IMG/VR virus record: IMGVR_UViG_2579778745_000007
Location: 1-33,129 of that record
From: a virus
Lineage: Duplodnaviria; Heunggongvirae; Uroviricota; Caudoviricetes
Strand: one strand, 5' to 3'
DNA: 33,129 nucleotides
Below are positions 702-17,754 of the stretch, one piece after another. Each line of letters starts with the position of its first letter. Positions within the stretch are counted from its first letter, which is position 1. The notes under the pieces are model-generated. The model was not told the origin of the DNA and ran no database searches. It saw only the letters and a list, made by a program, of their open reading frames with translations. The position numbers and the translations under genes are program-made.

Positions 702-1553
702 ATGATAAATTATGTCTACGGCGAACAACTGTACCAGGAGTTCGTCAGCTTCAGGGATCTCTTTCTAAAAAAAGCTGTTGCACGCGCCCAACACGTTGAT
801 ACAGCCAGCGACGGTCGTCCTGTACGCCCGGTTGTCGTTCTACCGTTCAAAGAAACTGACAGCATTCAGGCTGAAATTGATAAATGGACTTTAATGGCGC
901 GGGAACTGGAACAGTACCCAGACCTCAATATCCCAAAGACTATTTTATATCCAGTGCCTAACATCCTTCGCGGTGTGCGCAAGGTTACAACTTATCAGAC
1001 AGAAGCTGTGAACAGCGTCAACATGACCGCTGGCCGCATTATTCATCTGATTGATAAGGACATTCGCATCCAAAAAAGCGCGGGGATCAATGAGCACAGT
1101 GCGAAATACATAGAGAACCTGGAAGCAACAAAAGAGCTAATGAGGCAGTACCCGGAGGATGAAAAATTCCGTATGCGTGTACACGGCTTTAGCGAAACAA
1201 TGCTGCGCGTCCACTACATCTCCAGTAGCCCTAACTACAATGATGGTAAATCAGTTAGTTACCATGTACCGCTGTGTGGCGTGTTTATCTGCGATGAAAC
1301 TCTCCGTGATGGAATCATCATCAACGGTGAATTCGAGAAAGCAAAATTTAGCCTTTATGACTCTATAGAACCGATCATCTGCGACCGCTGGCCGCAGGCA
1401 AAAATATATCGCCTGGCAGATATTGAAAATGTAAAAAAACAAATTGCCATCACTCGCGAAGAGAAAAAGGTTAAGTCAGCCGCATCAGTTACGCGCAGCC
1501 GTAAAACCAAGAAGGGGCAGCCAGTAAACGACAACCCCGAAAGCGCGCAATAA
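702..1553 (+). CDS. c1: P1 C1-type immunity repressor (283 aa)
   Basis: 283-aa ORF with strong GGAGGAGG RBS, preceded by coi-sized ORF and operator-bearing promoter, convergent with pacB; operator motif recurs through the window. Confidence 0.6.
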   Translation: MINYVYGEQLYQEFVSFRDLFLKKAVARAQHVDTASDGRPVRPVVVLPFKETDSIQAEIDKWTLMARELEQYPDLNIPKTILYPVPNILRGVRKVTTYQTEAVNSVNMTAGRIIHLIDKDIRIQKSAGINEHSAKYIENLEATKELMRQYPEDEKFRMRVHGFSETMLRVHYISSSPNYNDGKSVSYHVPLCGVFICDETLRDGIIINGEFEKAKFSLYDSIEPIICDRWPQAKIYRLADIENVKKQIAITREEKKVKSAASVTRSRKTKKGQPVNDNPESAQ

Positions 1554-1556
1554 ATT

Positions 1557-1578
1557 ATGCCCGGCATCAACCGGGCAT
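1557..1578. terminator. Hairpin between convergent c1 and ant-like genes
   Basis: ATGCCCGG-CATCAA-CCGGGCAT, 8-bp perfect stem; weak T tract. Confidence 0.35.
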
Positions 1579-1585
1579 TCTTCCA

Positions 1586-2701
1586 TTATTCAGCCGCCAC
1601 CGGTTTTAACAAGCCAGCATCGAGCAGTTTACGCGTCAACCACTGCTGGCCTTTACCCGTTAATTGAGGCGTCAACCGTATCTGGTAGCCATCTTCATCA
1701 TCCAGCACCACTTCTTTCACCGTGAAATACCCCGCGTTGATGTACTGCTGGAACGGCACATTTTTACGTCCACCGGACGCTATCAGGATGCCGTTCTCCC
1801 GTAACCAGGCAAACAGCGCGTTTTGCTTAAGTCCAACAACCTTTGCAAAATTCCCAATCAGGATCCCTTTAGCTACTGATACCCGGTCGGCAAAATCGAC
1901 TTTAGGAGCGGCGGCCACCAGCTGCTGATTTAGCTGGTGGGCTTTCTGTTCCAGAAGCTGCTTTTGTTCAGCCAGTTCGGCAGCCAGGCGCAGAGCTTCT
2001 GGAAGCGTCTGGGGGATTGCAACCGGTTGCTGTTCTTTTTGTCGGAAGTAGCTGTCTTCCAGTTTTTCAAAGAATGCCCATGCCTGATCGGTTTCGATCA
2101 TTTTAGCGTGGCGGGCTGCGCCGCGTTCCGTCCAGAGGATGAGTGAGCGGGCTTTAGGAGAGATAGGATTTTGTGAGTTACTTAAAGTCACTCGCAAATT
2201 GTTCAAATCATCTCCAATAACTTTATAGAAATGCTTGCCTTCACAAAAACGTTCAGCATTACGGGAAAAGTTCTTCTTGATGTTATCCGCATCTGTCCCA
2301 TACCCCTTAGCAAGGATCTTAGTTGTCACTACACGCACTCCCAGCCATTCCAGAACGGGAATTTCATCAGACTGATTCTGAACAACCACCAGCTCCGATT
2401 CCTGAACTGAAGGTGCATGAGTTTTTTCTGATTTAACGTTAGTTGCTTTCATTCTGTGTGCCTCCTTGCGTGTTTCGGCTGCGACGGTTGCGTAATTCAG
2501 ATGCCCCTGTTCGAGCAGGTATTCGCGGATATCAGACAACAGAATGCGGTGAACAGCGTTCTTGTCCTTTCTCCGGTAAAGTTGTTTGGTGATCATGAAG
2601 TAGTTGGCAATAACGCCCGGTATATCCCTGGTACTGATACAGGATGTGTGCTGTTCAATTGCCTCAATCATTTCTTCACGGGTGACTAATGACGTTCTCA
2701 T
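1586..2701 (-). CDS. Phage antirepressor-like protein (ORF6N/KilA-N-like central region plus KilAC/ANT-type C-terminal domain)
   Basis: Central segment VTTKILAKGYGTDADNIKKNFSRNAERFCEGKHFYKV and C-terminal segment typical of antirepressor domains; start overlaps stop of upstream small ORF. Confidence 0.55.
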   Translation of the reverse strand: MRTSLVTREEMIEAIEQHTSCISTRDIPGVIANYFMITKQLYRRKDKNAVHRILLSDIREYLLEQGHLNYATVAAETRKEAHRMKATNVKSEKTHAPSVQESELVVVQNQSDEIPVLEWLGVRVVTTKILAKGYGTDADNIKKNFSRNAERFCEGKHFYKVIGDDLNNLRVTLSNSQNPISPKARSLILWTERGAARHAKMIETDQAWAFFEKLEDSYFRQKEQQPVAIPQTLPEALRLAAELAEQKQLLEQKAHQLNQQLVAAAPKVDFADRVSVAKGILIGNFAKVVGLKQNALFAWLRENGILIASGGRKNVPFQQYINAGYFTVKEVVLDDEDGYQIRLTPQLTGKGQQWLTRKLLDAGLLKPVAAE

Positions 2702-2919
2702 AGTCCCTCCTGAGCAGAAGCGTTAACAGGGAGGCACCAGTAACTGAGAGAGTTGCGCGAATCAGTGGAAAAGCGGGCAGAGAAAATGCAGGGAGCGTCA
2801 GGAAGCTGAGAACGGGCCTCATCTTCTGTCGGTGCAATAACGAAGTGATAGTGACGTTTCTGGCAGGAATAGAAGCGCCAGATGAATTCAGGATGAGTTG
2901 GGGTAGGGACAGTAGCCAT
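2698..2919 (-). CDS. Small protein (73 aa) coupled to the antirepressor gene; possible Icd-like cell-division inhibitor
   Basis: AAGGAGG RBS 6 nt upstream; ATGA overlap with downstream ant-like gene, the arrangement known for icd-ant in P1 immI; identity not verified. Confidence 0.35.
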   Translation of the reverse strand: MATVPTPTHPEFIWRFYSCQKRHYHFVIAPTEDEARSQLPDAPCIFSARFSTDSRNSLSYWCLPVNASAQEGL

Positions 2920-3104
2920 AATGGCAGCCTCCTTTGACTAAGTTAAGGAGCTACCGCGTGAGGTCTCAATCTCAATGGCGGTAGCACTGACTGGGTTGAG
3001 ACTACCGGCGTCAAAGGGAACCGGCCTGCCTTTCGGCAGCCCAGCCAGCACTACCATTGATTTCGGAGCTAAACGCTACGTATGGCTGTGCGATGGCATG
3101 ACAC

Positions 3105-3127
3105 AAAAAAAGACGCTTTCGGCGTCT
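3105..3127 (-). terminator. Rho-independent terminator downstream of pacB
   Basis: Minus-strand RNA AGACGC-CGAAA-GCGUCU followed by U6-7. Confidence 0.55.
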
Positions 3128-3260
3128 GTGTCGCCTTTGACATTATCCGGGGTCTCAATCCCGGCACCCGTTTTAATGAGGTGCCTGATAAGCATAAACC
3201 GAAAATGCCTCAAGGCGCAAGAGGTCAGGTTCAATGTAACATCGGTAGTTAAAAAACACA

Positions 3261-3277
3261 ATTTATTAGAGCAAATA
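3261..3277 (-). promoter_or_regulatory. C1 operator-like site just 3' of pacB
   Basis: Reads TTTGCTCTAATAAATTG on minus strand, 15/17 to consensus. Confidence 0.45.
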
Positions 3278-3278
3278 T

Positions 3279-4763
3279 TCATTCATTAAGCCATGCCAGA
3301 GCTTCATCAACCTGCGCTTCGTCTTCGACGCTAAGCACTTCATCCTGGGGAACATAATCCGCCAGCATAGCGAAACAATATGTATCCCAATGGTCTGGTG
3401 AGTGCAGGTTGAGTTTTTTCTTCATATCCTCCTTACTCATCACCTTCCATTGACCTGCGGAGTTAATCCCTACAGGGATTTTCGACGCTTCCTCAATAGT
3501 TTCATTACCCTTATCCAGTCTCATACGACCAGATTTTACGGCCTCTGCGGCTTGAACGTTGGCATAAGCACGTTTATCAAAGTACAGGCTCTTATCTTCA
3601 CGGCTATGCATCTTTTTACCCCAGCGTATGCGCTGTACGGTAATACCATAATACTCGTACATCAGATCCGCCGTTGCTTTACCCAGGCCATCGCCGTCTA
3701 TCGCTATGGTGATATTTGGGAATCGCTCAGGATTACATTCTGCGAAAATTTTGGCGGCAAGCTGCGTTTCTGTAACGTCTGTGTATTCCAGCATTCGATA
3801 GTTGATTACACGGCGTTTATTTCGCTGGCCGGACACCATCATGATATTGATAACGGACTTATCCCGTCCCGTACCACCAGCAACGTCCACACATGCAAGC
3901 CAGCCCCATCCTTTTGCAATCTTGACTTTCCGCCGCGTTGCACGTTCAACCTCATCACGTCCAAGAAGGAAGCCATCCTGTGATTTAGGGAATAGGCCGC
4001 GTACCTTAATCATGTACATAGGGTTATCACGCCCGCCGTACTCCGCCAGCTTCATTTTGATAAATGCTGGCGTTACCAACGGTGATTCCTCACTGTTAAG
4101 CGTGATCGCCGTATAAACGCCATCAGGGTTACCAGGACGCTTGGCCAGTTTATGGTGTGTATCGTAGAAATAGCCGCTTGGGCGTGTAGGCTGTGACAGT
4201 AATAAGATGCGGTTATCCTGTCCGGTAAGAGCACCGGTGATGATACCGAAAGCTCTATCACTGACACCGGAGGCTTCATCGATAATATACAGAAGATGAT
4301 CTGCGTGTTCACCGGCAAGAGCTTCTTCACTTCCCAGACGAAAGCCCTTCGGTACTACAGTCCATACACCTTTACCAGTAACCTCATAGAAAGCGGTTTC
4401 TGTCAGAACAAAATAATCAGCAAGCCATGGAAAACGGCTGGTGGCAGTAGCCCAGTTTATCTTGATGTACTTGAATATACCGGTCATTACCTGCTGAATT
4501 TTGTTCGCAACGATAATGGCGCGGGCACCGGGATACATGATTATGAACAACATGATCATGATAGAAGTCATGTCTGATTTCCCGGTACCGTGACCAGACG
4601 AAACAGATGTCTTGCTACCCTGTTCCTGCACAGACTCAATAATCAGATCCTGCTGCCAGGTAGGTGTTTTGCCGAACAAAACATCAGCGGCCGCAATCCA
4701 GTCATAACGATATAGCGCCACCAGCTCGCGCCAACGTGGATCCGTTACGCAACTTCTGGCCAT
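3279..4763 (-). CDS. pacB: Terminase large subunit (P1 PacB-like, 494 aa)
   Basis: Walker A GHGTGKS, Walker B-like [10 protein letters not shown]-terminal acidic nuclease-type residues; start overlaps pacA stop. Confidence 0.8.
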
Positions 4764-5956
4764 TAATCATCATCCCCGTATAGCTTGCGGGTAACTTCTT
4801 CGTCTTCCTCCTCGTCTTCGTCCAGGTCTTGTTCCAGCCATGGGTCGTTTGATACACCTTCAGTATCAACATCTCCATAACCGCCTGTATCAACGATATC
4901 GGCGATTTCTTCCCTACGCTGCTCAATCCACAATGCGGCATCGGCGCGGCGGTTGGCGGCCCGTTCTCGCGCAACTTTGTCCAGATCTTCAAGAGAAGGG
5001 CCACCGACGGCTGTTTGCCTTTCCTCATCATCGGTATTTGTCTTAGGAGCACGCAGATCGGCTTTGATTTGCTCCAGCATCAGGGGCGGCACTTTCCCGC
5101 CATGCGCCTCGATGAATTCAGCTGCTTCCAGCACTGACCAATTATTTTCACGCTTTCGTTCGTATGCCAGCTTAACAATGCCAGCTTGCCCCATAGATAA
5201 AGCGTGCTTTTCCGCCTCCCGGCTTTCTTTTCGATAGTTATTCCGGATGCTGTAAATGGTGTTGATCAGGCTGCTTATCTGCGCGGAACAGCTGTTTAGC
5301 ATGCTCGCGATACGGTATTCAGGCGGAGTACCTTCATCATCGTCTTTTTGCTGATCGCGCATTTCCTGCACCAGGCGAATACACGTATCCCTGGCGTTCT
5401 CCAGCATAAGGAGATGAGAAAGAGACTTTTCAAGAAGAGTGGTTTCCAGAACATCGGCCCCGGACCGACGCAACATAGCGCGCGCGGCCTTCCGCGCTTC
5501 AACGTTATCTATCAGGTAATCGCCAGCTTCGAATTCAAAGCGTTCACCATCATCATCCAGGGTGTCGCGTTCCAGGCGATCACGTAAGGTACGGTGGGCG
5601 CGGTTGATCACGTCATGATCATCCGAACGATCATTTATGCGCTTATTTTGGCGCTTCGCATTCTCGACTGCGGCACTGACAACGGCATTAACTCTCTGTT
5701 TTTCCGCTATTTCAGCCGCAATATGATCACCTGCATGTTGATCATTAGAGTGATCAATGATCATGCTTTTTAGTGGCTTCCTGACTGGCTTATTTGGCTT
5801 GCGGCTGTCCGCAGTCCTGGTGTCTTCTTTGAAGGCACGGAGATAACGACGTGCGGTATTAGGGTTAAGATTAAACTCGGCGGCATACTGTGCGATGGTG
5901 TAACCACCATCTCGCGCCAGGCGAGCAAAATTCTTCTTGTGATCGTCCCAGGTCAC
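4763..5956 (-). CDS. pacA: Terminase small/pac-recognition subunit (P1 PacA-like, 397 aa)
   Basis: 397-aa ORF with basic N-terminus and acidic C-terminus, coupled to terminase large subunit; contains clustered TGATCR hexamers in its 5' part; GTG start with AGGAAG RBS. Confidence 0.7.
5605..5763. other. pac packaging site: seven TGATCA/TGATCG hexamers in a 3 + 4 arrangement
   Basis: Hexamers at 5605-5610, 5616-5621, 5628-5633 and 5724-5729, 5739-5744, 5751-5756, 5758-5763, separated by about 90 bp; each contains a Dam GATC site. Confidence 0.7.
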
Positions 5957-6041
5957 TTATGCTTCCTTTCGTAAAAACTCTTTTTGACGCGAGGGTAACG
6001 AAAGTCACATGTCAAAAGGCCCGGAACGGGCAAGCAATCAA

Positions 6042-6494
6042 TCAGATACGTGCGGATGTGGCATTACCGTAATGACGGTGCTGACGGGCCACCTTATTGA
6101 AAAGTTGACGCGCCATTACCCAAGGCTGGTGCTCCCGGCGTTCCTTTTCGTCCTGCGTCATATAGAGTTCATTCTGGAGTTTTTCATCAAACCGGCGCGG
6201 AGCGCGGCTACGGCGAAAGAATTCAGGATTCAGAGAGTGGATCTGAAATCTACGTGGGCGTGTACTGTCATCAATCAAAACAGACGAATACTTAGACACA
6301 GCGATAGCCTTTAAGCGCAGATAAACATCGCGCTTATCGACATCCAGATGCGGGTATTCCTTTTCAAGAATTGCTGCGAGTTCTTTCGCTGATAGAAGAG
6401 ATTTAGTGCGGATCATGTAATCCGCAATCTCGTACGATGTTATTCGTGAGTGATTTATTTCCATGAAGTGGCGTCCCTGCCAGTTAAGTAACAT
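6042..6494 (-). CDS. Hypothetical protein, possible late promoter activator (Lpa-like) by size and position
   Basis: 150-aa ORF immediately upstream of pacA with an operator-like site upstream; alternative start at 6464; no recognisable motif. Confidence 0.35.
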   Translation of the reverse strand: MLLNWQGRHFMEINHSRITSYEIADYMIRTKSLLSAKELAAILEKEYPHLDVDKRDVYLRLKAIAVSKYSSVLIDDSTRPRRFQIHSLNPEFFRRSRAPRRFDEKLQNELYMTQDEKERREHQPWVMARQLFNKVARQHRHYGNATSARI

Positions 6495-6574
6495 CCTGTC
6501 ACCTACTGATTAGCCCATGTCAACTAATCAACGTGGAATATAACACCCTCGATTAAAGAAATAGCAATACATTA

Positions 6575-6591
6575 GAGCAATTTTATCTAAC
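6575..6591 (-). promoter_or_regulatory. C1 operator-like site upstream of the Lpa-like ORF
   Basis: Reads ATTGCTCTAATGTATTG on minus strand, 14/17 to consensus. Confidence 0.4.
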
Positions 6592-7626
6592 ACTCGACGA
6601 ATGACTTGTGATAACGCCCACTCCAAGCGCGTAATCAAAGAACAATCGTTGATGCATCGCCAACCTACCGTGCGTCTTCTCCCAATTATCGCGGTCACGC
6701 TCAATATCACGCTGGCATGACTGGCACAGAGGAATTGCGTAAATGTCATGCGCGCATAATCGACTATGACGAACGATATAAGGCGTAATGTGAGCGCCAG
6801 CTCCCGCAGCTCCACACCCACAGCATGGACGGGAAGCAACAAAGTCCATGTACTCAGGTAATTTTAGCGATTGCAGTTTTGGTATTTTGAAATGCGCCAT
6901 GCCAGGGTCGGAGTCAACATCCACAGGGCATACTTTTGCACGCATCGGCGCGGCGCGTTCTTCCATCATCTGAACATATGCTGTAGCGCGATCGTCATAC
7001 GGGCGAATATCCGCCTCTTTCAGAGGTCCGCTATCCTGCGGAGTAGCCTTCATCTTATTTATTGATATGCGGCAGACTTCTTCCGGCATCAGGTGCATCA
7101 TGTTGCGCATGAAAGCCCACCAGCACAGCTCCTGAATACTTAAATCATGGCTATTTGAAAGGCCCATTTCCTGACGGGCGACATCCAGTATCCAGTTAAC
7201 GCGATTATTGTGCAGCGTTTCTTTCAGCTCATTAAAACCACGCATCCGATAACGGTTATCGTGATGCCAGCACAACAACACCGCGCTATTGTCTCGTTCA
7301 GCGTGGACAATATGGTTGTCACACCAACTACGATCTGCGGCCTGGCATTGACCCTCTTTCCTACGCAACCACGCCACCAGCGCGTCAATTCCACCAATAC
7401 GGCGAAACAGTTCATCGCTGTTAAAAAACGGCTGCAACGCCTCATTTGTTGCCATGGTTTGCTCGGTAACAACGAGGCCGTCTTCCATGTGCTCGATTAA
7501 CTCACGCGGCACCGGCTCCATAATAAATTTACGGCCAGCCTCCACCAGCTTTCTGACCTCCTGATCCACTTTGAACGTGGCGAGGCCAAGCTCTTTCTGT
7601 ACAAAGGGAGTAATTACGGCTTTCAC
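6583..7626 (-). CDS. Hypothetical phage protein with cysteine-rich C-terminal region (DUF968-like)
   Basis: 347-aa ORF; C-terminal cysteine pairs (CCGCG ... CAHD ... CQSC); resemblance to DUF968 prophage proteins is from memory only. Confidence 0.35.
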
Positions 7627-7653
7627 ATCACACCTTTCATCACTGATTGGGCT

Positions 7654-7833
7654 TTATCTGCTGCCCGGCATTCTCTGTTTAAGCGCAACCATTTCCTGAC
7701 GGCATAACACAGCAATAGCGGTCCTGACTCCAATTTGCTTACCAACCAGGTATTGCTTTACCTTGCGGCGACTCACGCCATCAAGAAGCATCTTTAACGC
7801 TTCACGGGACAATTTGTTGTATTTGCGTGCCAT
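7654..7833 (-). CDS. Small basic protein downstream of doc
   Basis: ORF-track ORF 7654..7854 overlaps doc; internal Met start at 7833 avoids overlap; function unknown. Confidence 0.3.
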   Translation of the reverse strand: MARKYNKLSREALKMLLDGVSRRKVKQYLVGKQIGVRTAIAVLCRQEMVALKQRMPGSR

Positions 7834-7837
7834 TAAT

Positions 7838-8218
7838 CTACTCCGCAGAACCATACAATCTACGTAACGTGTCGGCGACAGAAGATACAGATATCTCGCC
7901 AGTCGCAGCGCCTACAGTAAGGTCTGCCAGTTCAGGTGAATCAAATACCTGCACCCCGTTACGGCGTAGAAATAGCAGCGCACTGTTTAGCGCGGTACGC
8001 TTATTGGCATCATTGAATATATGCCCTCTCGCTGTAGCCACCAGGTAGGTGGCGGAGACTTCGAAAAGGTCGGTGATATCTTCGTAGGCAACTCTGGCCT
8101 GAACTCTCCCGATAATGGCCTCTGCCCTACCCGGATCTGACATTCCCGGCAGGCCGCCGTAGCGGCTTATATTCGCATCATGAAGCGCAATAAGTTCTTC
8201 CGGTGATATATGCCTCAT
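7838..8218 (-). CDS. doc: Doc toxin (Fic-fold kinase, death on curing)
   Basis: 126 aa; Fic motif HIFNDANKR; closely matches my recollection of P1 Doc; stop/start coupled to phd. Confidence 0.95.
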
Positions 8219-8439
8219 TATCGGTTAACCAGTTCCTTGTTGGTGGAGTCCAGGGTGTCAAACAGGGATGCAAATTCAGCATCCAGCGCCGCTTTTTTGT
8301 AGGCTTCGAAAGTAGCCTTGCTGACAATTACTGCTGGCTCACGGCCTCTGCGGGTGATTTCAACCTCTTCCCCGGCTTCAACATTGTTGAGCACTTCAGA
8401 AAGGTTGCCGCGCGCGGTACGGAAGTTAATGGATTGCAT
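8218..8439 (-). CDS. phd: Phd antitoxin (prevent host death)
   Basis: 73 aa from ATG at 8439 ([39 protein letters not shown]...), matches recalled P1 Phd; ORF track adds two upstream codons from GTG at 8445. Confidence 0.95.
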
Positions 8440-8448
8440 AAACACCTC

Positions 8449-8469
8449 GTGTACTCGTTATGTGTACAC
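8449..8469. promoter_or_regulatory. phd/doc operator-promoter region with two 8-bp palindrome-like sites
   Basis: GTGTACTC (8449-8456) and perfect palindrome GTGTACAC (8462-8469); TATAAT on minus strand just upstream; GAGGTG RBS. Confidence 0.55.
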
Positions 8470-8615
8470 AATTATAAACTTCACAGGCATAAAGCACCAG
8501 CACTTTGCGGCTTAACAAACCTCTAGGCAGGTCATTCGTAGCCTAATGTCCGAACTGCTAAAGCATCCAAGTTGCTGTAGAATCACCGCCAATTACATAA
8601 GCCTGAAATAAGTGG

Positions 8616-10178
8616 ATGAAAATGACAAGTATTCAACAACGTGCAGAGCTTCATCGTCAAATCTGGCAAATTGCTAACGATGTCAGGGGTTCGGTCGATG
8701 GATGGGATTTTAAGCAATACGTTCTGGGCGCACTTTTCTACCGTTTTATCAGCGAAAATTTTTCCAGTTATATTGAAGCCGGTGATGACAGTATCTGTTA
8801 TGCGAAACTGGATGACAGCGTAATTACTGATGACATTAAAGACGATGCCATCAAAACTAAAGGCTACTTCATCTACCCCAGTCAGCTTTTCTGCAACGTA
8901 GCTGCGAAAGCAAATACTAATGACAGGCTGAATGCAGATTTAAACAGCATCTTCGTTGCTATCGAAAGTTCTGCTTACGGTTATCCTTCAGAAGCTGACA
9001 TCAAAGGTTTGTTTGCTGATTTCGATACCACCAGTAACCGCCTGGGTAACACCGTTAAAGATAAAAATGCCCGCCTGGCTGCGGTTCTGAAAGGGGTTGA
9101 AGGGTTAAAACTTGGTGACTTCAACGAACATCAGATTGACCTGTTCGGTGATGCCTATGAGTTCCTGATTTCTAACTATGCGGCAAATGCCGGTAAGTCA
9201 GGCGGTGAGTTCTTTACACCGCAGCACGTCTCCAAGCTGATTGCACAACTGGCTATGCACGGGCAGACCAACGTTAACAAAATCTACGACCCGGCAGCGG
9301 GTTCCGGCTCACTGTTGTTGCAGGCTAAAAAGCAGTTTGATAACCACATCATCGAAGAAGGCTTTTTCGGTCAGGAAATCAACCATACGACCTATAACCT
9401 GGCGCGTATGAACATGTTTTTGCACAATATCAACTACGACAAGTTTGATATCAAGCTGGGCAATACGCTGACTGAGCCGCACTTCAGAGATGAAAAACCG
9501 TTTGATGCCATCGTTTCTAACCCGCCGTATTCGGTGAAATGGATTGGCAGCGATGACCCGACGCTGATTAACGATGAACGTTTTGCCCCGGCTGGCGTCC
9601 TGGCCCCCAAATCCAAAGCTGACTTCGCCTTTGTACTACATGCGCTGAACTATCTTTCGGCCAAAGGTCGTGCTGCGATTGTCTGCTTCCCGGGTATTTT
9701 TTACCGTGGCGGCGCAGAGCAGAAAATCCGTCAGTATCTGGTCGATAATAACTATGTCGAAACCGTAATTTCACTGGCTCCGAACCTGTTCTTTGGCACC
9801 ACCATTGCCGTAAACATTCTGGTTCTGTCCAAACATAAAACGGATACCAACGTTCAGTTTATTGATGCCAGCGAACTGTTCAAAAAAGAGACCAACAACA
9901 ATATTCTGACCGATGCCCATATCGAACAGATTATGCAGGTATTTGCCAGCAAGGAAGATGTTGCTCATCTGGCAAAATCTGTCGCGTTTGAAGCCGTTGT
10001 CGCGAATGACTATAACCTGTCGGTGAGCAGCTATGTGGAAGCGAAAGATACTCGCGAAATTATCGATATCGCTGAGTTGAATGCAGAGCTGAAAACCACG
10101 GTCAGCAAAATCGACCAATTGCGCAAAGATATTGATGCGATTGTGGCTGAAATTGAAGGCTGCGAGGTACAGAAATGA
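8616..10178 (+). CDS. hsdM: Type I restriction-modification N6-adenine methyltransferase subunit HsdM (type IC-like, 520 aa)
   Basis: AdoMet motif [10 protein letters not shown] and catalytic NPPY ([10 protein letters not shown]); stop overlaps hsdS start. Confidence 0.95.
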
Positions 10179-11407
10179 GCGAGTTGAGTTATCTGGAAAA
10201 ATTGCTGGATGGAGTTAAGGTTGAGTGGAAAACACTAGAGAAAGTGCTTAAACGAACTAAAGGCACAAAAATAACCGCTGGGCAGATGAAAGCTCTTCAC
10301 AAAGATAATGCGCCGCTTAAAATTTTTGCAGGGGGAAAAACAGTAGCCTTTGTTGACTTTAAAGATATTCCAGAGAAAGATATTAATAGAGAGCCATCGA
10401 TCATTGTTAAATCCAGAGGTATTATCGAATTCGAGTATTACGATAAACCATTCTCTCACAAAAATGAGATGTGGTCATATCACTCAAATAATGATGCGAT
10501 AAGCATAAAGTATATTTATTACTTCCTAAAAATAAATGAAGGATATTTCCAGAAAATTGGGGGTAAAATGCAAATGCCACAAATTGCAACTCCTGATACA
10601 GATAAGTTTGAAGTTCCAATCCCCTGCCCGGATAATCCGGAAAAATCCCTAGCCATCCAGTCTGAAATCGTTCGGATTCTGGATAAGTTTACTGCACTTA
10701 CCGCTGAGCTTACCGCTGAGCTTAACATGCGTAAAAAACAGTACAACTACTATCGCGACCAGTTGTTGAGTTTTAAAGAGGGTGAGGTTGAGTGGAAGAC
10801 TTTGGGGGAAATTGGGAATTTTACATATGGATATGCAGCCAAAGCCATGGACTCAGGAGATGCCCGTTTCGTGAGAATTACTGACATAAATAAAGACGGG
10901 AAGCTATCGAAAGAAAACCCAATGTACGTTGAATTAAATGAGGAAAATGAGAAATATACCTTAGACAAAAATGATTTACTCATGGCAAGGACTGGTGCAA
11001 CCTTTGGTAAAACAATGATTTTTGAAGAAGATTATCCAGCAGTATACGCTGGTTTTTTAATAAAGTTGAACCTAAATGAAACGATTATTAATGCCAAATA
11101 TTACTGGCACTTTGCACAAAGTGATTTTTTTTGGGAACAGGCTAATAAATTAGTATCTGGTGGTGGGCAACCACAGTTTAATGCTAATGCACTGAAACAA
11201 GTCAGAGTACCTATTCCATACCCATCTCACCCTCAAAAATCTTTAGACGAACAGGGGCGTATTGTGGATATTCTAGATAAGTTTGATGCAATCGCAGCTT
11301 CCATCACCGAAGGTCTTCCGCGTGAAATCGAGTTGCGCCAGAAACAATACGAATATTATCGTGATTTACTGTTCAGTTTCCCGAAACCTGAAACTGTCAG
11401 TAATTAA
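10175..11407 (+). CDS. hsdS: Type I R-M specificity subunit HsdS (type IC architecture)
   Basis: Two AT-rich variable regions separated by a conserved central region with TAEL-TAEL repeat; conserved C-terminal ...[23 protein letters not shown]. Confidence 0.9.
10697..10720 (+). repeat. Two tandem copies of the 12-bp repeat CTTACCGCTGAG (encoding TAEL) in the hsdS central conserved region
   Basis: Direct read of sequence; a partial third unit CTTA follows. Confidence 0.9.
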
Positions 11408-11528
11408 TTGACCATTGCTACCGACCGGGCCACCTTAACACCCGGTCAGTATATAGACTATTTTTTACACGCCGGAAGTCGCCCTTAAAGCCCTTCCGGC
11501 CCTTGCCAGACGGCACAAAGGATGCGCT

Positions 11529-14500
11529 ATGACTCATCAGACACACACCATTGCTGAATCCAATAATTTTATCGTTCTTGATAAGTACATCAAAGCTGAG
11601 CCAACAGGCGACAGCTACCAGAGCGAATCGGACCTGGAACGCGAACTGATACAGGACCTACGGAATCAGGGCTATGAATTTATTTCGGTAAAATCACAGT
11701 CAGCGATGCTGGCCAACGTTCGGGAACAGCTTCAGAGCCTCAATGGTGTGGTGTTTAATGACAGCGAGTGGCGGCGTTTCACGGAGCAGTATCTGGACAA
11801 CCCGAGCGATGGCATTCTGGATAAGACCCGTAAAATCCATATCGACTATATTTGCGACTTTATTTTTGATGACGAGCGACTTGAGAACATCTATTTGATA
11901 GATAAAAAGAATCTCATGCGCAATAAGGTGCAGATTATCCAGCAGTTTGAACAGACGGGTTCTCATGCTAACCGTTATGACGTCACGATCCTGGTTAATG
12001 GCTTACCACTGGTACAAATCGAACTGAAAAAGCGCGGCGTGGCGATTCGTGAGGCTTTCAACCAGATACATCGTTACAGTAAAGAGAGTTTTAACAGCGA
12101 AAATTCCCTGTTTAAGTATCTGCAACTGTTTGTCATTTCTAACGGCACCGATACCCGTTATTTTGCCAACACAACAAAGCGCGATAAAAACAGTTTTGAC
12201 TTCACCATGAACTGGGCGAAATCAGACAATACACTGATTAAAGACCTCAAAGACTTTACCGCTACCTTTTTCCAGAAACATACTCTGCTTAATGTTCTGG
12301 TGAACTACAGCGTTTTTGACAGTAGTCAGACGCTACTGGTGATGCGACCGTACCAGATTGCCGCCACCGAACGAATCTTATGGAAAATCAACAGCTCCTA
12401 TAAAGCGAAAAACTGGTCTAACCCCGAAAGCGGTGGCTTTATCTGGCACACCACCGGTTCTGGTAAAACCCTCACCAGCTTTAAAGCCGCGCGGCTGGCA
12501 ACAGAACTGGACTTTATTGATAAAGTCTTCTTCGTGGTCGACAGGAAAGACCTCGATTACCAGACTATGAAGGAATATCAGCGTTTTTCGCCAGATAGTG
12601 TTAACGGCTCGGAAAATACCGCAGGTCTAAAACGAAATCTGGATAAGGACGATAACAAAATTATCGTCACCACTATTCAGAAACTTAATAACCTGATGAA
12701 AGCAGAAAGCGACCTGCCTGTATACAATCAGCAAGTGGTGTTTATATTTGATGAATGCCACCGCAGCCAGTTTGGAGAAGCGCAGAAAAACCTGAAGAAG
12801 AAATTCAAACGCTATTATCAGTTTGGTTTTACCGGCACTCCTATTTTCCCGGAAAACGCTTTAGGTTCAGAAACGACCGCCAGCGTATTTGGTCGTGAAT
12901 TGCATTCGTATGTAATTACCGATGCGATTCGAGATGAAAAAGTGCTTAAATTCAAGGTGGACTACAACGATGTGCGGCCACAGTTTAAGTCTTTAGAGAC
13001 AGAAACCGACGAGAAAAAACTGAGTGCGGCTGAAAATCAGCAGGCGTTTCTTCATCCCATGCGTATACAGGAAATTACGCAATATATTCTGAATAACTTC
13101 CGCCAGAAGACCCACCGTACTTTCCCAGGTTCCAAAGGCTTTAATGCCATGCTGGCAGTGAGTAGCGTGGATGCCGCGAAAGCCTATTACGCGACGTTTA
13201 AACGGTTACAAGAGGAAGCAGCTAATAAATCGGCTACCTATAAACCGCTGCGTGTTGCGACAATCTTCTCCTTTGCCGCCAATGAAGAACAAAATGCCAT
13301 TGGTGAAATTTCCGATGAAACTTTTGATACCAGCGCAATGGACAGCAGTGCTAAAGAGTTTCTTGACGCTGCAATTCGTGAGTATAACAGCTATTTTAAA
13401 ACTAACTTCAGCACCGACAGTAACGGTTTTCAGAACTACTATCGTGATTTAGCCCAACGGGTTAAAAATCAGGATATCGATCTGTTAATTGTCGTTGGGA
13501 TGTTTTTAACCGGCTTCGACGCTCCAACATTGAACACGCTATTCGTCGATAAAAACTTGCGTTTTCACGGCCTGATGCAGGCATTCTCCCGCACCAACCG
13601 CATTTATGACGCTACTAAAACCTTCGGTAACATCGTCACTTTTCGGGATCTGGAACGCTCAACTATTGATGCCATAACGCTGTTTGGTGACAAAAACACC
13701 AAAAATGTGGTGTTAGAAAAGAGTTATACAGAGTATATGGAAGGCTTTACTGATGCTGCTACTGGTGAAGCTAAACGCGGCTTCATGACAGTAGTTTCAG
13801 AACTGGAACAACGGTTCCCTGACCCTACCAGTATTGAAAGTGAAAAAGAGAAGAAAGACTTCGTTAAACTGTTTGGCGAATACCTGCGTGCCGAGAACAT
13901 CCTGCAAAACTATGATGAATTTGCCACGCTAAAAGCCCTGCAACAAATCGATCTTAGCGATCCTGTTGCGGTAGAAAAATTCAAAGCAGAACATTATGTG
14001 GATGATGAAAAGTTCGCTGAATTGCAAACAATTCGTCTCCCTGCTGATCGCAAGATTCAGGATTATCGTTCGGCCTATAACGATATTCGCGACTGGCAGC
14101 GCCGTGAGAAAGAAGCTGAGAAAAAAGAGAAATCAACCACTGACTGGGATGACGTAGTTTTTGAGGTCGATTTGCTGAAGTCTCAGGAAATAAACCTGGA
14201 TTATATCCTTGGACTGATTTTCGAACACAACAGACAAAATAAAGGCAAGGGCGAAATGATCGAAGAGGTCAAACGCTTAATTCGTTCAAGCCTAGGGAAC
14301 CGTGCTAAAGAGGGCCTGGTGGTCGATTTTATTCAGCAAACGAACCTGGATGATTTACCGGACAAAGCCAGCATCATTGACGCATTCTTTACGTTTGCTC
14401 AACGCGAACAGCAACGTGAAGCAGAAGCATTGATAAAAGAAGAAAATCTCAATGAAGATGCAGCAAAACGCTATATTCGCACGTCTTTAAAACGCGAATA

Positions 14501-14645
14501 TGCCACCGAAAATGGCACAGAATTAAACGAAACATTACCAAAACTTAGTCCGTTAAATCCGCAATATAAAACGAAAAAACAGGCAGTTTTCCAGAAAATC
14601 GTCTCGTTTATTGAGAAGTTTAAAGGCGTAGGCGGAAAAATATAG
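11529..14645 (+). CDS. hsdR: Type I restriction enzyme endonuclease/translocase subunit HsdR (1038 aa)
   Basis: Helicase motif I TGSGKT, motif II DECH, motif [10 protein letters not shown]; size typical of type IC HsdR. Confidence 0.95.
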
Positions 14646-14661
14646 CCCAATTCGTGTTTTT

Positions 14662-14689
14662 CTTGCGGGTTCTTAATTAAACCCGCAAG
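14662..14689. repeat. Perfect 10-bp inverted repeat (CTTGCGGGTT / AACCCGCAAG) with 8-nt loop, 17 bp after hsdR stop
   Basis: Direct read; T-run precedes rather than follows the stem on the plus strand, so not a canonical terminator. Confidence 0.5.
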
Positions 14690-14724
14690 AGACCGTGGGG
14701 TTCCAAATGGCTAATATACTCCCC

Positions 14725-14811
14725 TTACCTATGCGCGACAATGCTGCCAAAAGTGATAAAGAACAGCCAGAAATAGATCGCGGCCATAATGATTTTGAAT
14801 GCCGTGCTCAT
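14725..14811 (-). CDS. 28-aa hydrophobic peptide candidate (MSTAFKIIMAAIYFWLFFITFGSIVAHR)
   Basis: AGGAG RBS 8 nt upstream of ATG; single predicted transmembrane-like helix; below ORF-track length cutoff. Confidence 0.3.
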   Translation of the reverse strand: MSTAFKIIMAAIYFWLFFITFGSIVAHR

Positions 14812-14839
14812 ATTTTCAGCTCCTGTGATTGATTGGATA

Positions 14840-14870
14840 CATGCCGCGCCTTGCGGCATGTTTTTATTTT
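14840..14870 (+). terminator. Rho-independent terminator (8-bp stem CATGCCGC/GCGGCATG, loop GCCTT, then TTTTTATTTT)
   Basis: Canonical GC-rich hairpin plus T tract on plus strand; likely terminates hsdR transcript. Confidence 0.7.
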
Positions 14871-14909
14871 CACTTTCTCTGTTTTAAAAATCAATATTTA
14901 TTTGAGCAA

Positions 14910-15416
14910 TTATTGCTGATGAAGAAGCGCATTTTCATACTCCCTGACCATTAACGTAAGCACGCCGTGCCTCCTGAAAACACGCGCCACTTCAATCTTA
15001 TCTTCCAGCGCGAACGCGATTTTACTTAGACCAATTTTCTTAAGGAGATCAATCTTTGCTGGGCCGTCATTTCTGTCATCGGTGGCAGGACGCATAGATA
15101 GCAAAGGCTCAGCCCCGTTTGTTACGTACTTCCGCAGCCAGGCTCGTGTTTTATCCCTTGCGATCTCACAGCGCCCGGTTACAAACCAGACCGTGTAAAC
15201 GTTAAATAACTGGCGCACCATATCAATAACTGGAGTTATGGGAGTATCGGTGTCACAGGCGAGATTAAACTCGTTCCAGTCCTTTGTTAATGCACCTTTA
15301 CCTGGTGGCGGAAGCAAATGCAGTCTGTCTTCAGTTGCCTCTGATATTGTTCCATCAATATCGACTATGACGATATACGGACGTTCCTGGTGTGCGTGTT
15401 TATTGAAAATACTCAA
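14910..15416 (-). CDS. HAD-superfamily phosphatase-like protein (168 aa)
   Basis: N-terminal HAD motif I VIVDIDGT; downstream conserved T/K/D positions consistent with HAD fold. Confidence 0.5.
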   Translation of the reverse strand: MSIFNKHAHQERPYIVIVDIDGTISEATEDRLHLLPPPGKGALTKDWNEFNLACDTDTPITPVIDMVRQLFNVYTVWFVTGRCEIARDKTRAWLRKYVTNGAEPLLSMRPATDDRNDGPAKIDLLKKIGLSKIAFALEDKIEVARVFRRHGVLTLMVREYENALLHQQ

Positions 15417-15488
15417 ATGCCCTCCTCATTGGACGAAAAAAATGCTGGTGGGCGCACTCCACCAGCATTAAATGTGACACTGTAACTA

Positions 15489-16751
15489 TCAGCGGACGTA
15501 AATAGTGCCGCCGTTCTCTTTTTCCCATGCATCGCTAAGTGCATAGCAAACATCAAGAAGTCTTCTTGCCGCTGTTTCCTCTAAACCCAATTCGACAACC
15601 AACTGCTCATGACGGCGGGTAACCACATCAAACAGGGTATGCAGCCCTTTAGTTGCCAGATCATCAATGAATTCCGGTTCGAACGGCAGCTCTGCATCTG
15701 CCAACATAACCTCTTGCGCCCACTCAACTCGACGGACCAGTTCCGGGCGGCGGCTTTCCATCTCTTTACAGATCAATTCATGGAAGAACTCTACCCAACC
15801 TTCCGGCTGGAACTCGCGGAAAATTGCCAACGGCTGGAAGTTTGGCATCAACCATTCGTTGATTCGGATATCAATGGCATAGCCCATGTCGCAGCAGAAC
15901 TGATAAGCAAAGTCCAGCTTAGAAACGATATAAGGACGCTCGTTATTGAACTCTTTAGGCGATGAGATCCCATAAGCCAGGAGGCGCGGGAAGAAGGAGA
16001 TTTGCCCTAACGTCGGATGAAGTTTGCTTGCAGGGAAACGTCGCTCAGTAATGCCATACATTTCCTTCTTGAGCGTCGCAAATTTAGCATTTTCATTAAC
16101 CAGCTCGGTAACCTCTGCTTTTTTATTAGCAAATGCCACGCGCGCCTCGCTTGCATCTTTAATAGCCTTTTTGAGCTGTTGGTTAAGGTCAGCGACCTGC
16201 TTACGCAGTTCCTGTCGCTCACTTTTGGCTTTGTTATGGCGTTTCTCAAGGTTAAAAGGATCAAGTTTCATGATCTCTTTATATTGAGATTTTAGCGTTG
16301 AAATCTGTGAGTTCCGCAGTTCAACCATCGCGGTCATTTCATTGAGTTTTGTTTCCAGCTCAATGCTTATACGTTCGGCATTATCAGCACGCTGGTTGGC
16401 GTCATGCGTCGCATCGTCGATCGCGTCCTGTTGCTGGCGTTTCAAATGTTCAATTTGCAGCTGAAGCTCTTCAATTTCTTTATCCTTCAGACCGAGATCC
16501 AACTGCATATTTTCAGCTGCATCTACCAGGGAGTTATGGCTATCAGCTTCTGCGTTATAAACATCAATAAGCTGTGCGTGAAGCATCTCCGCTGACTGAA
16601 CCGCATTATCAAAAAAACGCGCTGTGAGGTCATCACAACTAACGCGGCGTTGCGCGGCCCGGATGTTCTGGATAATGGCCGGGATACCGGCATTCAGGAC
16701 GTCAGGGATAGATACATTTTCGATTGATTGGTTTTGTGCTGAAGTGATCAT
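15489..16751 (-). CDS. Hypothetical protein with long N-terminal coiled-coil region and globular C-terminal domain (420 aa)
   Basis: Heptad-rich, charged segment over roughly residues 70-220; no recognisable catalytic motif. Confidence 0.45.
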   Translation of the reverse strand: MITSAQNQSIENVSIPDVLNAGIPAIIQNIRAAQRRVSCDDLTARFFDNAVQSAEMLHAQLIDVYNAEADSHNSLVDAAENMQLDLGLKDKEIEELQLQIEHLKRQQQDAIDDATHDANQRADNAERISIELETKLNEMTAMVELRNSQISTLKSQYKEIMKLDPFNLEKRHNKAKSERQELRKQVADLNQQLKKAIKDASEARVAFANKKAEVTELVNENAKFATLKKEMYGITERRFPASKLHPTLGQISFFPRLLAYGISSPKEFNNERPYIVSKLDFAYQFCCDMGYAIDIRINEWLMPNFQPLAIFREFQPEGWVEFFHELICKEMESRRPELVRRVEWAQEVMLADAELPFEPEFIDDLATKGLHTLFDVVTRRHEQLVVELGLEETAARRLLDVCYALSDAWEKENGGTIYVR

Positions 16752-16752
16752 T

Positions 16753-16971
16753 TCAAAGTTCCGTATTAGCTTGTGCTTCGGTCATTTTTCCTAAGTATGA
16801 AGGAGGAAGGACTACGCAATTTGTATCCAGTCCCTCACCTATGGCAGCCTGTAAAATTCTGGCTAAGGTGAGTCTCTTGTTGCGATACCTGGTGATGACA
16901 TGCCTGATACCGCCGGTCGGCGTAACAAAGGCGATCAGCCAGTAGTGATATTTCCGTCGGAATGGCCACAT
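16753..16971 (-). CDS. Small hypothetical protein (72 aa from internal Met)
   Basis: ORF-track start at 17007 would overlap the operator at 16986-17002, so Met at 16971 preferred; stop adjacent to downstream ORF start. Confidence 0.3.
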   Translation of the reverse strand: MWPFRRKYHYWLIAFVTPTGGIRHVITRYRNKRLTLARILQAAIGEGLDTNCVVLPPSYLGKMTEAQANTEL

Positions 16972-16985
16972 AGTGCACCTTTTGG

Positions 16986-17002
16986 ATTGCTCTAATAAAA
17001 AA
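16986..17002 (+). promoter_or_regulatory. C1 operator-like site (ATTGCTCTAATAAAAAA)
   Basis: 14/17 to consensus; partner site in opposite orientation 33 bp away. Confidence 0.45.
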
Positions 17003-17034
17003 CGCAATGAGTGTACATCACGTTTTAAAAATAT

Positions 17035-17051
17035 GGAATTATTAGAGCAAT
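17035..17051 (-). promoter_or_regulatory. C1 operator-like site (reads ATTGCTCTAATAATTCC on minus strand)
   Basis: 14/17 to consensus; almost identical to the site at 44-60. Confidence 0.45.
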
Positions 17052-17052
17052 A

Positions 17053-17754
17053 TTATTCTGATTCTCGCTCAAAAAACGAGCTAATAAGGGGAAGCCAATC
17101 CTCTGACACTTCGCGAGGTCGCGGTTTGCCGTGGAAAAAGATTATTCGGCAGTCCTTTGGTAATGCCCCATTCCCCCTGGAGTAACGCGCGCTCGCATAT
17201 TTTGAACCAGGTTCCACAACATCGGCCTTGTAACTTACAAACCATCCTGGATACAGATCCTGAAATGCTGGTGTATCATCGCCCATAACCTTCCGTAAGA
17301 ACCCCTGATCACCCCAGCACTCAGTAGTGACACAACGAGAAATCCAACCTTCCGGATCTTGCCAGAATGAACTCCAGATATGCGCTTTAACACTATTTGG
17401 TATCCACAAGGCACCGCTGCCACGATATTGTGGATGGTAAAAATCCCTAAGCATGGTGAAGCTGGTTGGTGGATGCTCTAGGATTGGGCGTATATCACCG
17501 GCAATAACCGTGTCCAAATCCAGATAGAACAGATCATCGGTTATATCCGGTCGGAACAACTCGATTTTCGCCCACCAGCCACGGCACTTTTGCCACTGGT
17601 TGATCAATGGGACAACTTTGACGCCAGGTACATGTAAACGCTTCAGGTCTGTCAGGCAAATAATTTCATAGCCTTTTGGCAGTTGATTAACCAGCCACTG
17701 CACATCGGAAGCGTTATAGTCACCACCAGAGCGAAAAACTAAAGCAATCTTCAT
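17053..17754 (-). CDS. Hypothetical enzyme, possible GT-A-like nucleotide-sugar transferase (233 aa)
   Basis: Hydrophobic stretch followed by DLD (LFYLDLDTV), resembling a DxD motif; weak call. Confidence 0.3.

Follow-up and report, generated by a model that had tools for sequence, protein, structure and literature searches.

The finding of a Type IC restriction-modification cassette beside the Phd/Doc addiction module of a phage-plasmid raises the question of whether the two are a new pairing, joined in regulation, or simply neighbors in an established arrangement. The window (the whole stretch of DNA analyzed, 33,129 nucleotides of IMG/VR record IMGVR_UViG_2579778745_000007) very probably represents a P1-like phage-plasmid with an intact EcoR124I-type cassette whose proximity to phd/doc is a matter of descent. 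Directly observed, and described below, are the genes of the cassette and their intactness, its identity and exact boundaries, and how widespread it is.

The P1-like backbone and the limits of the foreign block

Judged by synteny, the window comes from a P1-like phage-plasmid and covers the part from lox/c1 to dmt in reverse orientation. Synteny with P1 extends across the entire window, through lox/c1, pacAB, lpa, pdcAB, and doc/phd, followed by pap, pmgS, the tail genes, ban, and dmt, and the syntenic parts align to P1 with 93–99.6% identity. P1 core genes thus flank the cassette in order on both sides, as in a Punavirus backbone; the replication and partition genes are located outside the window. 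In DNA alignments, positions 6000–8515 and 14721–17300 are 99.2% and 97.8% identical to P1, respectively. By this measure, doc/phd and all DNA from 14721 onward are P1 backbone.

Base-level alignment to P1 places the foreign block at 8516–14720 (6205 bp). P1 homology stops at 8515, and the left junction (8515/8516) is one base beyond the retained humD stop codon; the right junction is at 14720/14721. In P1 coordinates, these junctions correspond to 87969 and 84482, between which the genes pmgT-pmgU-pmgV-upfM/N/O-hot-lxr-humD (3487 bp) were swapped out exactly, leaving an element that lacks humD, hot, lxr, and pmgT-V. The GC content of the cassette is 43.3%, compared with 48–49% for its flanks. 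A search of the two junctions for direct or inverted repeats of 6 bp or more gave none, and there are likewise no target-site duplications; the sequence reveals no insertion mechanism. The first-pass annotation had assigned the span 7838–14870 to the cassette and its neighbor. All five genes do lie there, but the foreign DNA occupies only the block defined here. Its statement that P1 has umuD-like and other genes here agrees with the P1 annotation, in which humD is among the genes of this locus, and its view of the cassette as cargo at a variable site is also sound: among the published variable regions of P1-like phage-plasmids, pmgT to humD is region 8 (PMC9603915), and P7 has a third, different block there.

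On the left flank, doc (7838..8218, minus strand) encodes the 126-aa toxin of the P1 addiction module, with a full-length Pfam Fic/Doc match and 125 of 126 residues identical to P1 Doc. The antitoxin gene phd (8218..8439, minus strand; full-length Pfam PhdYeFM match) encodes 73 aa from the P1 start; in the ORF listing, it spans 8218–8445, having been extended to an upstream in-frame GTG at 8445. The arrangement is that of a type II toxin-antitoxin system, in which the gene for the Phd_YefM antitoxin comes first and is followed immediately by that for the Fic/Doc toxin, both behind Pphd (8471..8499, minus strand; −10 TATAAT at 8471–8476, −35 at 8494–8499), a promoter transferred by alignment from the P1 RefSeq annotation. 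The Pphd sequence is invariant between P1 and hsd-bearing elements. A divergent region of 170 bp shared by phd and hsdM, as first reported, is obtained only from the GTG; from the true phd ATG, the region measures 176 bp. Its distal part is the 100-bp hsdM leader (8516..8615, plus strand), which alignment to P1 identifies as the left end of the foreign block.

On the right flank, a cassette-borne hairpin follows hsdR (14661..14690, no strand assigned; −25.6 kcal/mol by RNA folding), with a U-tract absent on both strands. The cassette ends 4 bp after the stop codon of a small ORF of the P1 backbone (14725..14811, minus strand), whose translation is a hydrophobic 28-aa peptide kept in P1, P7, phi456, and pSCLS1. 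An intrinsic terminator with a 10-bp stem (14839–14861) and a T-run was located at 14839..14870 on the plus strand by a terminator scan (fold z = −5.3). The strong terminator said to close the cassette is therefore real, but it is not part of the cassette: it lies 194 bp beyond the hsdR stop codon within P1-derived DNA and is kept in P1 and P7, both of which lack hsd. Next come the PpmgT promoters and the C1 operator Op88 (14866..14910, minus strand; P1 annotation transferred via alignment), and with pmgT gone, PpmgT is directed toward the hsdR 3′ end.

Gene content of the hsd cassette

As first described, the hsd genes form a complete Type IC set in the order hsdM-hsdS-hsdR and diverge from phd/doc; all five ORFs are uninterrupted and give full-length Pfam matches. 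The hsdM gene (8616..10178, plus strand; Pfam HsdM_N and N6_Mtase) encodes 520 aa, of which 517 are identical to EcoR124I HsdM (PDB 7bst_D), i.e., three substitutions, and carries NPPY at 302 and the AdoMet-binding motif GSG at 229. Its end is overlapped by 4 bp by the start of hsdS (10175..11407, plus strand; 410 aa), which contains two Pfam Methylase_S stretches. In alignment with PDB 7bst_A, the N-terminal, central, and C-terminal Type IC conserved regions of HsdS are identical, whereas both TRDs are unlike those of EcoR124I; TRD1 covers approximately residues 15–150 and TRD2 approximately residues 205–360. A 12-bp tandem repeat (10697..10724, plus strand; 2.3 copies by Tandem Repeats Finder) encodes, on translation, two copies of TAEL at HsdS residues 176–183. 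After a spacer of 121 bp (11408..11528, plus strand), which holds a candidate hsdR promoter (TTAACA-18-TATTTT, 11435–11464, plus strand) found by the promoter scan as a consensus match only, hsdR (11529..14645, plus strand) encodes 1038 aa with Pfam HSDR_N, SWI2_SNF2/ResIII, T1R_D3, and EcoR124_C matches. HsdR aligns end to end with EcoR124I HsdR (PDB 2w00; 2289.5 bits across 1–1038), and its nuclease motifs (D151/E165/K167 of PD-(D/E)xK, with QIHRY at 179) and motor motifs (GSGKT at 310, DECH at 408) are intact.

These features agree in pointing to Type IC. The genes are ordered hsdM-hsdS-hsdR with hsdR behind its own intergenic region, HsdM and HsdR are close to the prototypes by sequence, HsdS combines the conserved regions with TAEL repeats in its central helix, and the catalytic motifs of HsdM and HsdR are present. 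Sequence relatedness is one of the two grounds on which Type I families are defined, the other being cross-complementation. PADLOC likewise classified the three products as a Type I MTase, a specificity subunit, and a REase. In the hsdM leader, a consensus scan returned no consensus-grade promoter, and the best −10 candidate, chosen by eye, is TAGAAT at 8578–8583. The scan also missed the annotated Pphd; thus, statements on promoters rest on annotation transfer and inspection. The only uncommon part of the cassette is its hsdS allele, at least 80% of which is covered in only 8 PLSDB plasmids. The exact HsdS protein is nonetheless present on at least 24 public contigs, which suggests that it is maintained.

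From the near-identity to EcoR124I, we infer a mechanism in which enzymatic activity, target architecture, and defense benefit would follow the prototype. HsdS and two HsdM subunits would assemble into an M2S methyltransferase whose bipartite target is determined by the two TRDs, and a single adenine in either half of that target would receive an N6-methyl group. Since both TRDs differ from those of EcoR124I, the target is not GAA N6 RTCG, and it may be one that is still uncatalogued. The number of TAEL repeats has a role in Type IC HsdS (PMC3874165), and two repeats would give a nonspecific spacer of 6 bp, provided that the TRDs behave as in EcoR124I and EcoDXXI. At an unmodified target, one HsdR and then a second would join to form R2M2S, whose ATP-driven translocation would pull DNA in and lead to cutting at distant stall sites, thereby protecting the lysogen from unmodified incoming DNA.

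Relatives and prevalence

The same cassette occurs at the same site in the P1-like phages vB_EcoM-673R5 (ON470615) and phi456 (OR339795), with junctions identical to the base, as are those of the plasmid pSCLS1. The latter is the best full-length database match; its record is full of frameshifts and was used for the junction comparison only. The first-pass annotation named the presence of such a cassette at this position in reference P1-like genomes as evidence against its own reading; given these two phages, novelty is unsupported. In addition, phi456 forms plaques (PMC10967188), so a phage without pmgT-humD can still be infectious.

The arrangement has also been on record for some time. According to misc_features in the P1 RefSeq entry, the sequence at each junction is identical to that bordering the EcoDXXI and R124/3 hsd loci. 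P1-homologous flanks of Type IC hsd loci are the subject that Tyndall et al. (1997) name in their title, as given in four reference lists; going by that title, Type IC hsd genes have been linked in the literature to P1 flanks with phd/doc and Op88 since 1997. For pSvP1, a "type I restriction modification... substituting pmg genes" has been described (PMC6906374). Among 5426 complete E. coli genomes, 702 (12.9%) contain the phd|hsdM junction, which is spanned in 711 E. coli records, and 593 hold the block, as do 552 PLSDB plasmids. The phd|hsdM junction seemingly occurs in more records than P1's own phd|humD, to judge from sampled half-coverage matches, which proved to be phd|humD, rather than from an exhaustive count. 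The intact Type IC cassette of the EcoR124I family next to Phd/Doc is real but ordinary, as this arrangement has been known since 1997 and occurs in roughly one of every eight complete E. coli genomes.

Alternative readings and comparison with known systems

The divergent, closely spaced genes led to the proposal that phd/doc and the restriction-modification system are co-regulated through their shared intergenic region, with Phd2-Doc at the Pphd operator also modulating a divergent hsdM promoter. The Phd/Doc operator presumably lies around Pphd. This promoter is contained wholly within 70 bp of P1 DNA, no closer than approximately 80 bp to the best candidate for an hsdM −10 element; the left junction is 16 bp beyond its −35 element, and the hsdM leader is separate DNA, making the intergenic region a junction of two unrelated DNAs. 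Admittedly, the leader hardly ever occurs apart from the phd junction (720 records contain the leader and 711 span the junction), but this tight linkage is explained by the common descent of one P1-derived fragment that was IS-moved into other plasmids. Moreover, the DNA that precedes the hsdM ATG in chromosomal Type IC loci is unrelated, and control of EcoR124I is described in reviews as post-translational, acting via enzyme assembly rather than transcription (PMC12707154, PMC3874165). Co-regulation is thus without support and very improbable. A second form of control, slightly less improbable, would operate at the other end: on induction, the retained C1-repressed PpmgT would drive antisense RNA into hsdR, lowering restriction during lytic growth. 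PpmgT and its operator are conserved in hsd-bearing P1-like elements, and terminator scans and folds revealed no canonical minus-strand terminator between PpmgT and hsdR. If true, this would amount to a repressor-coupled restriction-alleviation circuit in P1-like hosts of the cassette. However, PpmgT serves the conserved 28-aa ORF, which explains the retention of this promoter equally well, the stable hairpin at 14661–14690 may stop read-through, and R124-type plasmids keep hsd while losing PpmgT, as their P1 remnant ends at approximately window position 14804 and is followed by IS1.

Two further readings concern the activity and the origin of the cassette. That it is a relic with neither restriction nor modification activity is unlikely, if somewhat less so than either form of control. 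Relatives are often affected by split gene calls, frameshifts, or IS insertions: the hsd gene calls of vB_EcoM-673R5 are split into fragments, the hsdS of phi456 appears interrupted, and IS insertions are found in the cassette of some plasmids. Carriage is therefore no guarantee of activity, and the scan showed no strong promoter upstream of hsdM. Against this, all three hsd ORFs in the window are full length, HsdM differs so little from EcoR124I, every HsdM and HsdR catalytic motif checked is intact, and the exact HsdS recurs on public contigs. The least credible reading, implied in the first-pass annotation, is that this lineage only recently acquired the cassette beside phd/doc as novel defense cargo. 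The lower GC content of the cassette and its absence from P1 would fit such an acquisition; junctions that show neither repeats nor target-site duplications do not. It is refuted by junctions that are the same to the base in two deposited phages and a plasmid, by the junction's presence across 711 E. coli records, and by the P1 reference annotation, which, like the wording of the 1997 title, already includes these junctions.

The preferred reading thus remains that of an intact EcoR124I-type cassette in a P1-like phage-plasmid. In this reading, the phd/doc genes are the P1 addiction module, unaltered and with an autoregulated promoter of their own, and phd/doc and hsd are neighbors by descent that form no regulatory unit. 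With hsd linkage to P1 flanks known since 1997, noted in the P1 annotation, and present in hundreds of plasmids, the locus has little value as a discovery. Its value lies in annotation, namely the exact cargo boundaries (8516–14720), the replaced genes, and the uncommon hsdS allele, while the prevalence shows one defense module spread over enterobacterial plasmids by a phage-plasmid backbone and IS capture.

Comparison with known systems places the locus among its relatives. The backbone on either side of the cassette is shared with P1 and P7, both of which also have Pphd, the small ORF, the hairpin of the terminator, and the C1 operator. Neither carries hsd genes at the cassette locus, where P1 has its pmgT-to-humD genes and P7 a different block downstream of the Op(hea) operator (upf86.8 onwards). 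Phages vB_EcoM-673R5 and phi456 and plasmids of the pSvP1/pSCLS1 type differ in having other hsdS TRD combinations, split or IS-interrupted gene calls, and approximately 96.5% identity. EcoDXXI (plasmid pDXX1) has doc-phd upstream and Op88/pap-side P1 DNA downstream, with junctions at the same P1 coordinates, and its HsdS is described as containing three TAEL repeats (PMC3874165), compared with two in the window. The prototype Type IC systems EcoR124I and EcoR124II (plasmids R124 and R124/3) have the same gene order, hsdM-hsdS-(spacer)-hsdR, and EcoR124I further matches the window in HsdM, full-length HsdR, the conserved regions of HsdS, and its two TAEL repeats, differing in both TRDs. According to the P1 annotation, R124-type loci also share the P1-derived DNA that follows hsdR; on these conjugative plasmids, it amounts to an 84-bp remnant, whereas the cassette of the window resides in a complete P1-like backbone.

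Boundaries and gene content of the hsd block

The P1 backbone spans the whole window in reverse orientation, from lox/c1 to dmt, with a foreign block at 8516-14720. Exact protein matching identifies the window with contig AYQR01000054.1 (assembly GCA_000503415.1). By BLAST, positions 6000-8515 and 14721-17300 are 99.2% and 97.8% identical to P1 (NC_005856), respectively, and 3487 bp of P1 have been swapped for 6205 bp, replacing pmgT, pmgU, pmgV, upfM/N/O, hot, lxr, and humD. In base-level alignments, P1 homology on the left ends after the retained humD stop codon plus one base, 16 bp beyond the -35 element of Pphd. The right junction lies 4 bp past the stop codon of a conserved 28-aa small ORF; in P1, pmgT begins 5 bp beyond this point. 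No flanking repeats of 6 bp or longer were found in a search of both junctions. GC content is 43.3% in the block and 38.3% in hsdS, against 48-49% in the flanks.

The ORF list and Pfam matches bear out the five genes of the first-pass annotation, all present and uninterrupted. On the minus strand are doc (7838-8218; Fic/Doc) and phd (8218-8439; PhdYeFM), the latter being extended by the ORF finder to a GTG at 8445. On the plus strand, hsdM (8616-10178; HsdM_N and N6_Mtase), hsdS (10175-11407; two Methylase_S halves), and hsdR (11529-14645; HSDR_N, SWI2/SNF2-ResIII, T1R_D3, and EcoR124_C) were identified by PADLOC as Type I methyltransferase, specificity subunit, and restriction enzyme, respectively.

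Elsewhere in the window, P1 has no counterpart to some 1.7 kb lying between c1 and pacB (1553-3280). This block holds a 371-aa ANT/ORF6N antirepressor-like ORF (1586-2701, minus strand), a 73-aa ORF (2698-2919, minus strand), and a small Phage_ASH-like ORF; phage phi456 (Ant2) and plasmid pSCLS1 have comparable annotated genes next to c1. The P1 match is also absent over 26521-26813, near the dbn/ban boundary, and over 31916-32099, inside the dmt-proximal region. Identity to P1 is uneven (99.2% across pdcB-doc-phd at 6000-8515 versus 93.3% over 3281-8515, which includes pacA and pacB), which points to a mosaic backbone.

Control regions at the two junctions

Pairing an addiction module with an R-M system for stabilization plus defense is a reasonable, textbook reading. 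The proposal that the two are co-regulated through the phd-hsdM intergenic region finds no support: Pphd (8471-8499, coordinates transferred from the P1 annotation), around which we take the Phd/Doc operator to be situated, falls wholly within 70 bp of P1-derived sequence, and the hsdM leader, a distinct DNA segment, meets it at the 8515/8516 junction. In reviews, EcoR124I control is presented as post-translational, through assembly (PMC12707154, PMC3874165).

The terminator said to close the cassette does exist, at 14839-14861 plus a T-run, but it belongs to the backbone, and both P1 and P7 conserve it. The cassette-borne hairpin at 14661-14690 has no U-tract on either strand. The PpmgT promoters and C1 operator Op88 (14866-14910, minus strand) are retained, antisense towards hsdR; by our reading, Op88 (ATTGCTCAAATAAATAT) differs from the C1 operator consensus at two positions. 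C1-controlled PpmgT/Op88 faces the 3' end of hsdR without a canonical terminator between, and prophage induction could conceivably let it drive antisense transcription into that gene; we consider this very improbable, as the promoter is equally explained by a small ORF that it serves, and PpmgT/Op88 has been lost from R124-type plasmids. That hydrophobic 28-aa ORF (MSTAFKIIMAAIYFWLFFITFGSIVAHR; 14725-14811, minus strand), with an AGGAG ribosome-binding site, lies just downstream of PpmgT/Op88 and is conserved in P1, P7, phi456, and pSCLS1, while the P1 RefSeq record carries no annotation for it.

Distribution and earlier records of the locus

The hsd cassette beside phd/doc has been recorded before. 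Three features of the P1 RefSeq entry point to it: 87969-88647 shows 98% identity to E. coli conjugative plasmid DNA on the upstream side of the EcoDXXI hsd locus, 84263-84482 is identical to DNA on the downstream side of that locus, and 84399-84482 is identical to plasmid R124/3 DNA following hsdR. The window junctions coincide with the inner ends of the features, P1 87969 and 84482. The study behind this annotation is Tyndall et al. 1997, whose title names these hsd flanks as its subject. The view of the cassette as cargo at a variable site holds: pmgT...humD is published as variable region 8 of P1-like phage-plasmids (PMC9603915), and P7 has yet a third block there, unrelated to the others. 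Its novelty is refuted by the first-pass annotation's own criterion, since two deposited P1-like phages, vB_EcoM-673R5 and phi456, carry it at the same junctions. Plasmid pSvP1 has also been described with a type I R-M system in place of pmg genes (PMC6906374). Phage-plasmids and plasmids commonly exchange functions, R-M systems among them (PMC10879196). Phi456 plaques on MC1061 (PMC10967188); therefore, loss of pmgT-humD is compatible with infectivity.

Positions 8400-14900 are at least 80% covered in 552 PLSDB plasmids. In a set of 5426 complete E. coli genomes, 80% or more of the block is present in 593. Among the same genomes, the phd|hsdM junction is spanned in 702 (711 records), the hsdR|P1 junction in 557 (563 records), and the hsdM leader occurs at all in 703 (720 records). 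Chromosomal Type IC loci have only coding sequence in common with the cassette, from the hsdM ATG onward. A non-P1 plasmid carries the unit as an IS-bounded P1 fragment, with a truncated pdcB followed by pdcA, doc, phd, hsdMSR, and some 84 bp of P1, in agreement with the R124/3 remnant annotated in P1. On the non-P1 plasmid pMRSN346638_67.9, a CBASS-like pair (SMODS nucleotidyltransferase and S-4TM effector; 12109-14040) adjoins the IS-bounded doc-phd-hsdMSR fragment, together making a small defense cluster.

The only uncommon feature of the cassette is its hsdS allele, at least 80% covered in just 8 PLSDB plasmids, with parts common to about 900; this distribution is familiar TRD shuffling. 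Identical copies of the HsdS protein occur on 24 or more public contigs, most of them with the same P1-like surroundings. On contig DBAKMI010000010.1 (GCA_044200555.1), the neighbors of an identical HsdS are metG and a ParA gene resembling mrp; an S24 peptidase similar to humD lies upstream, and genes similar to P1 tciA lie downstream. This context suggests a P1-like element that is chromosomally integrated or rearranged.

Relation to EcoR124I

The window HsdM is identical to the EcoR124 M subunit (PDB 7bst) at 517 of 520 residues, differing at N219, A460, and T479, and retains NPPY at 302. HsdR aligns with EcoR124I HsdR (PDB 2w00) over residues 1-1038 at 2289.5 bits, retaining the nuclease triad D151/E165/K167, QIHRY at 179, GSGKT at 310, and DECH at 408. 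The conserved regions of HsdS (N-terminal, central, and C-terminal) are those of EcoR124 HsdS, whereas both target-recognition domains differ. Its central helix carries TAELTAEL; the coding DNA (10697-10724) is a perfect repeat of 12 bp. Since the spacer in EcoR124I/II and EcoDXXI hybrids is 6 bp with two TAEL repeats and 7 bp with three (PMC3874165), the window HsdS would be expected, by analogy, to recognize a target with an N6 spacer.
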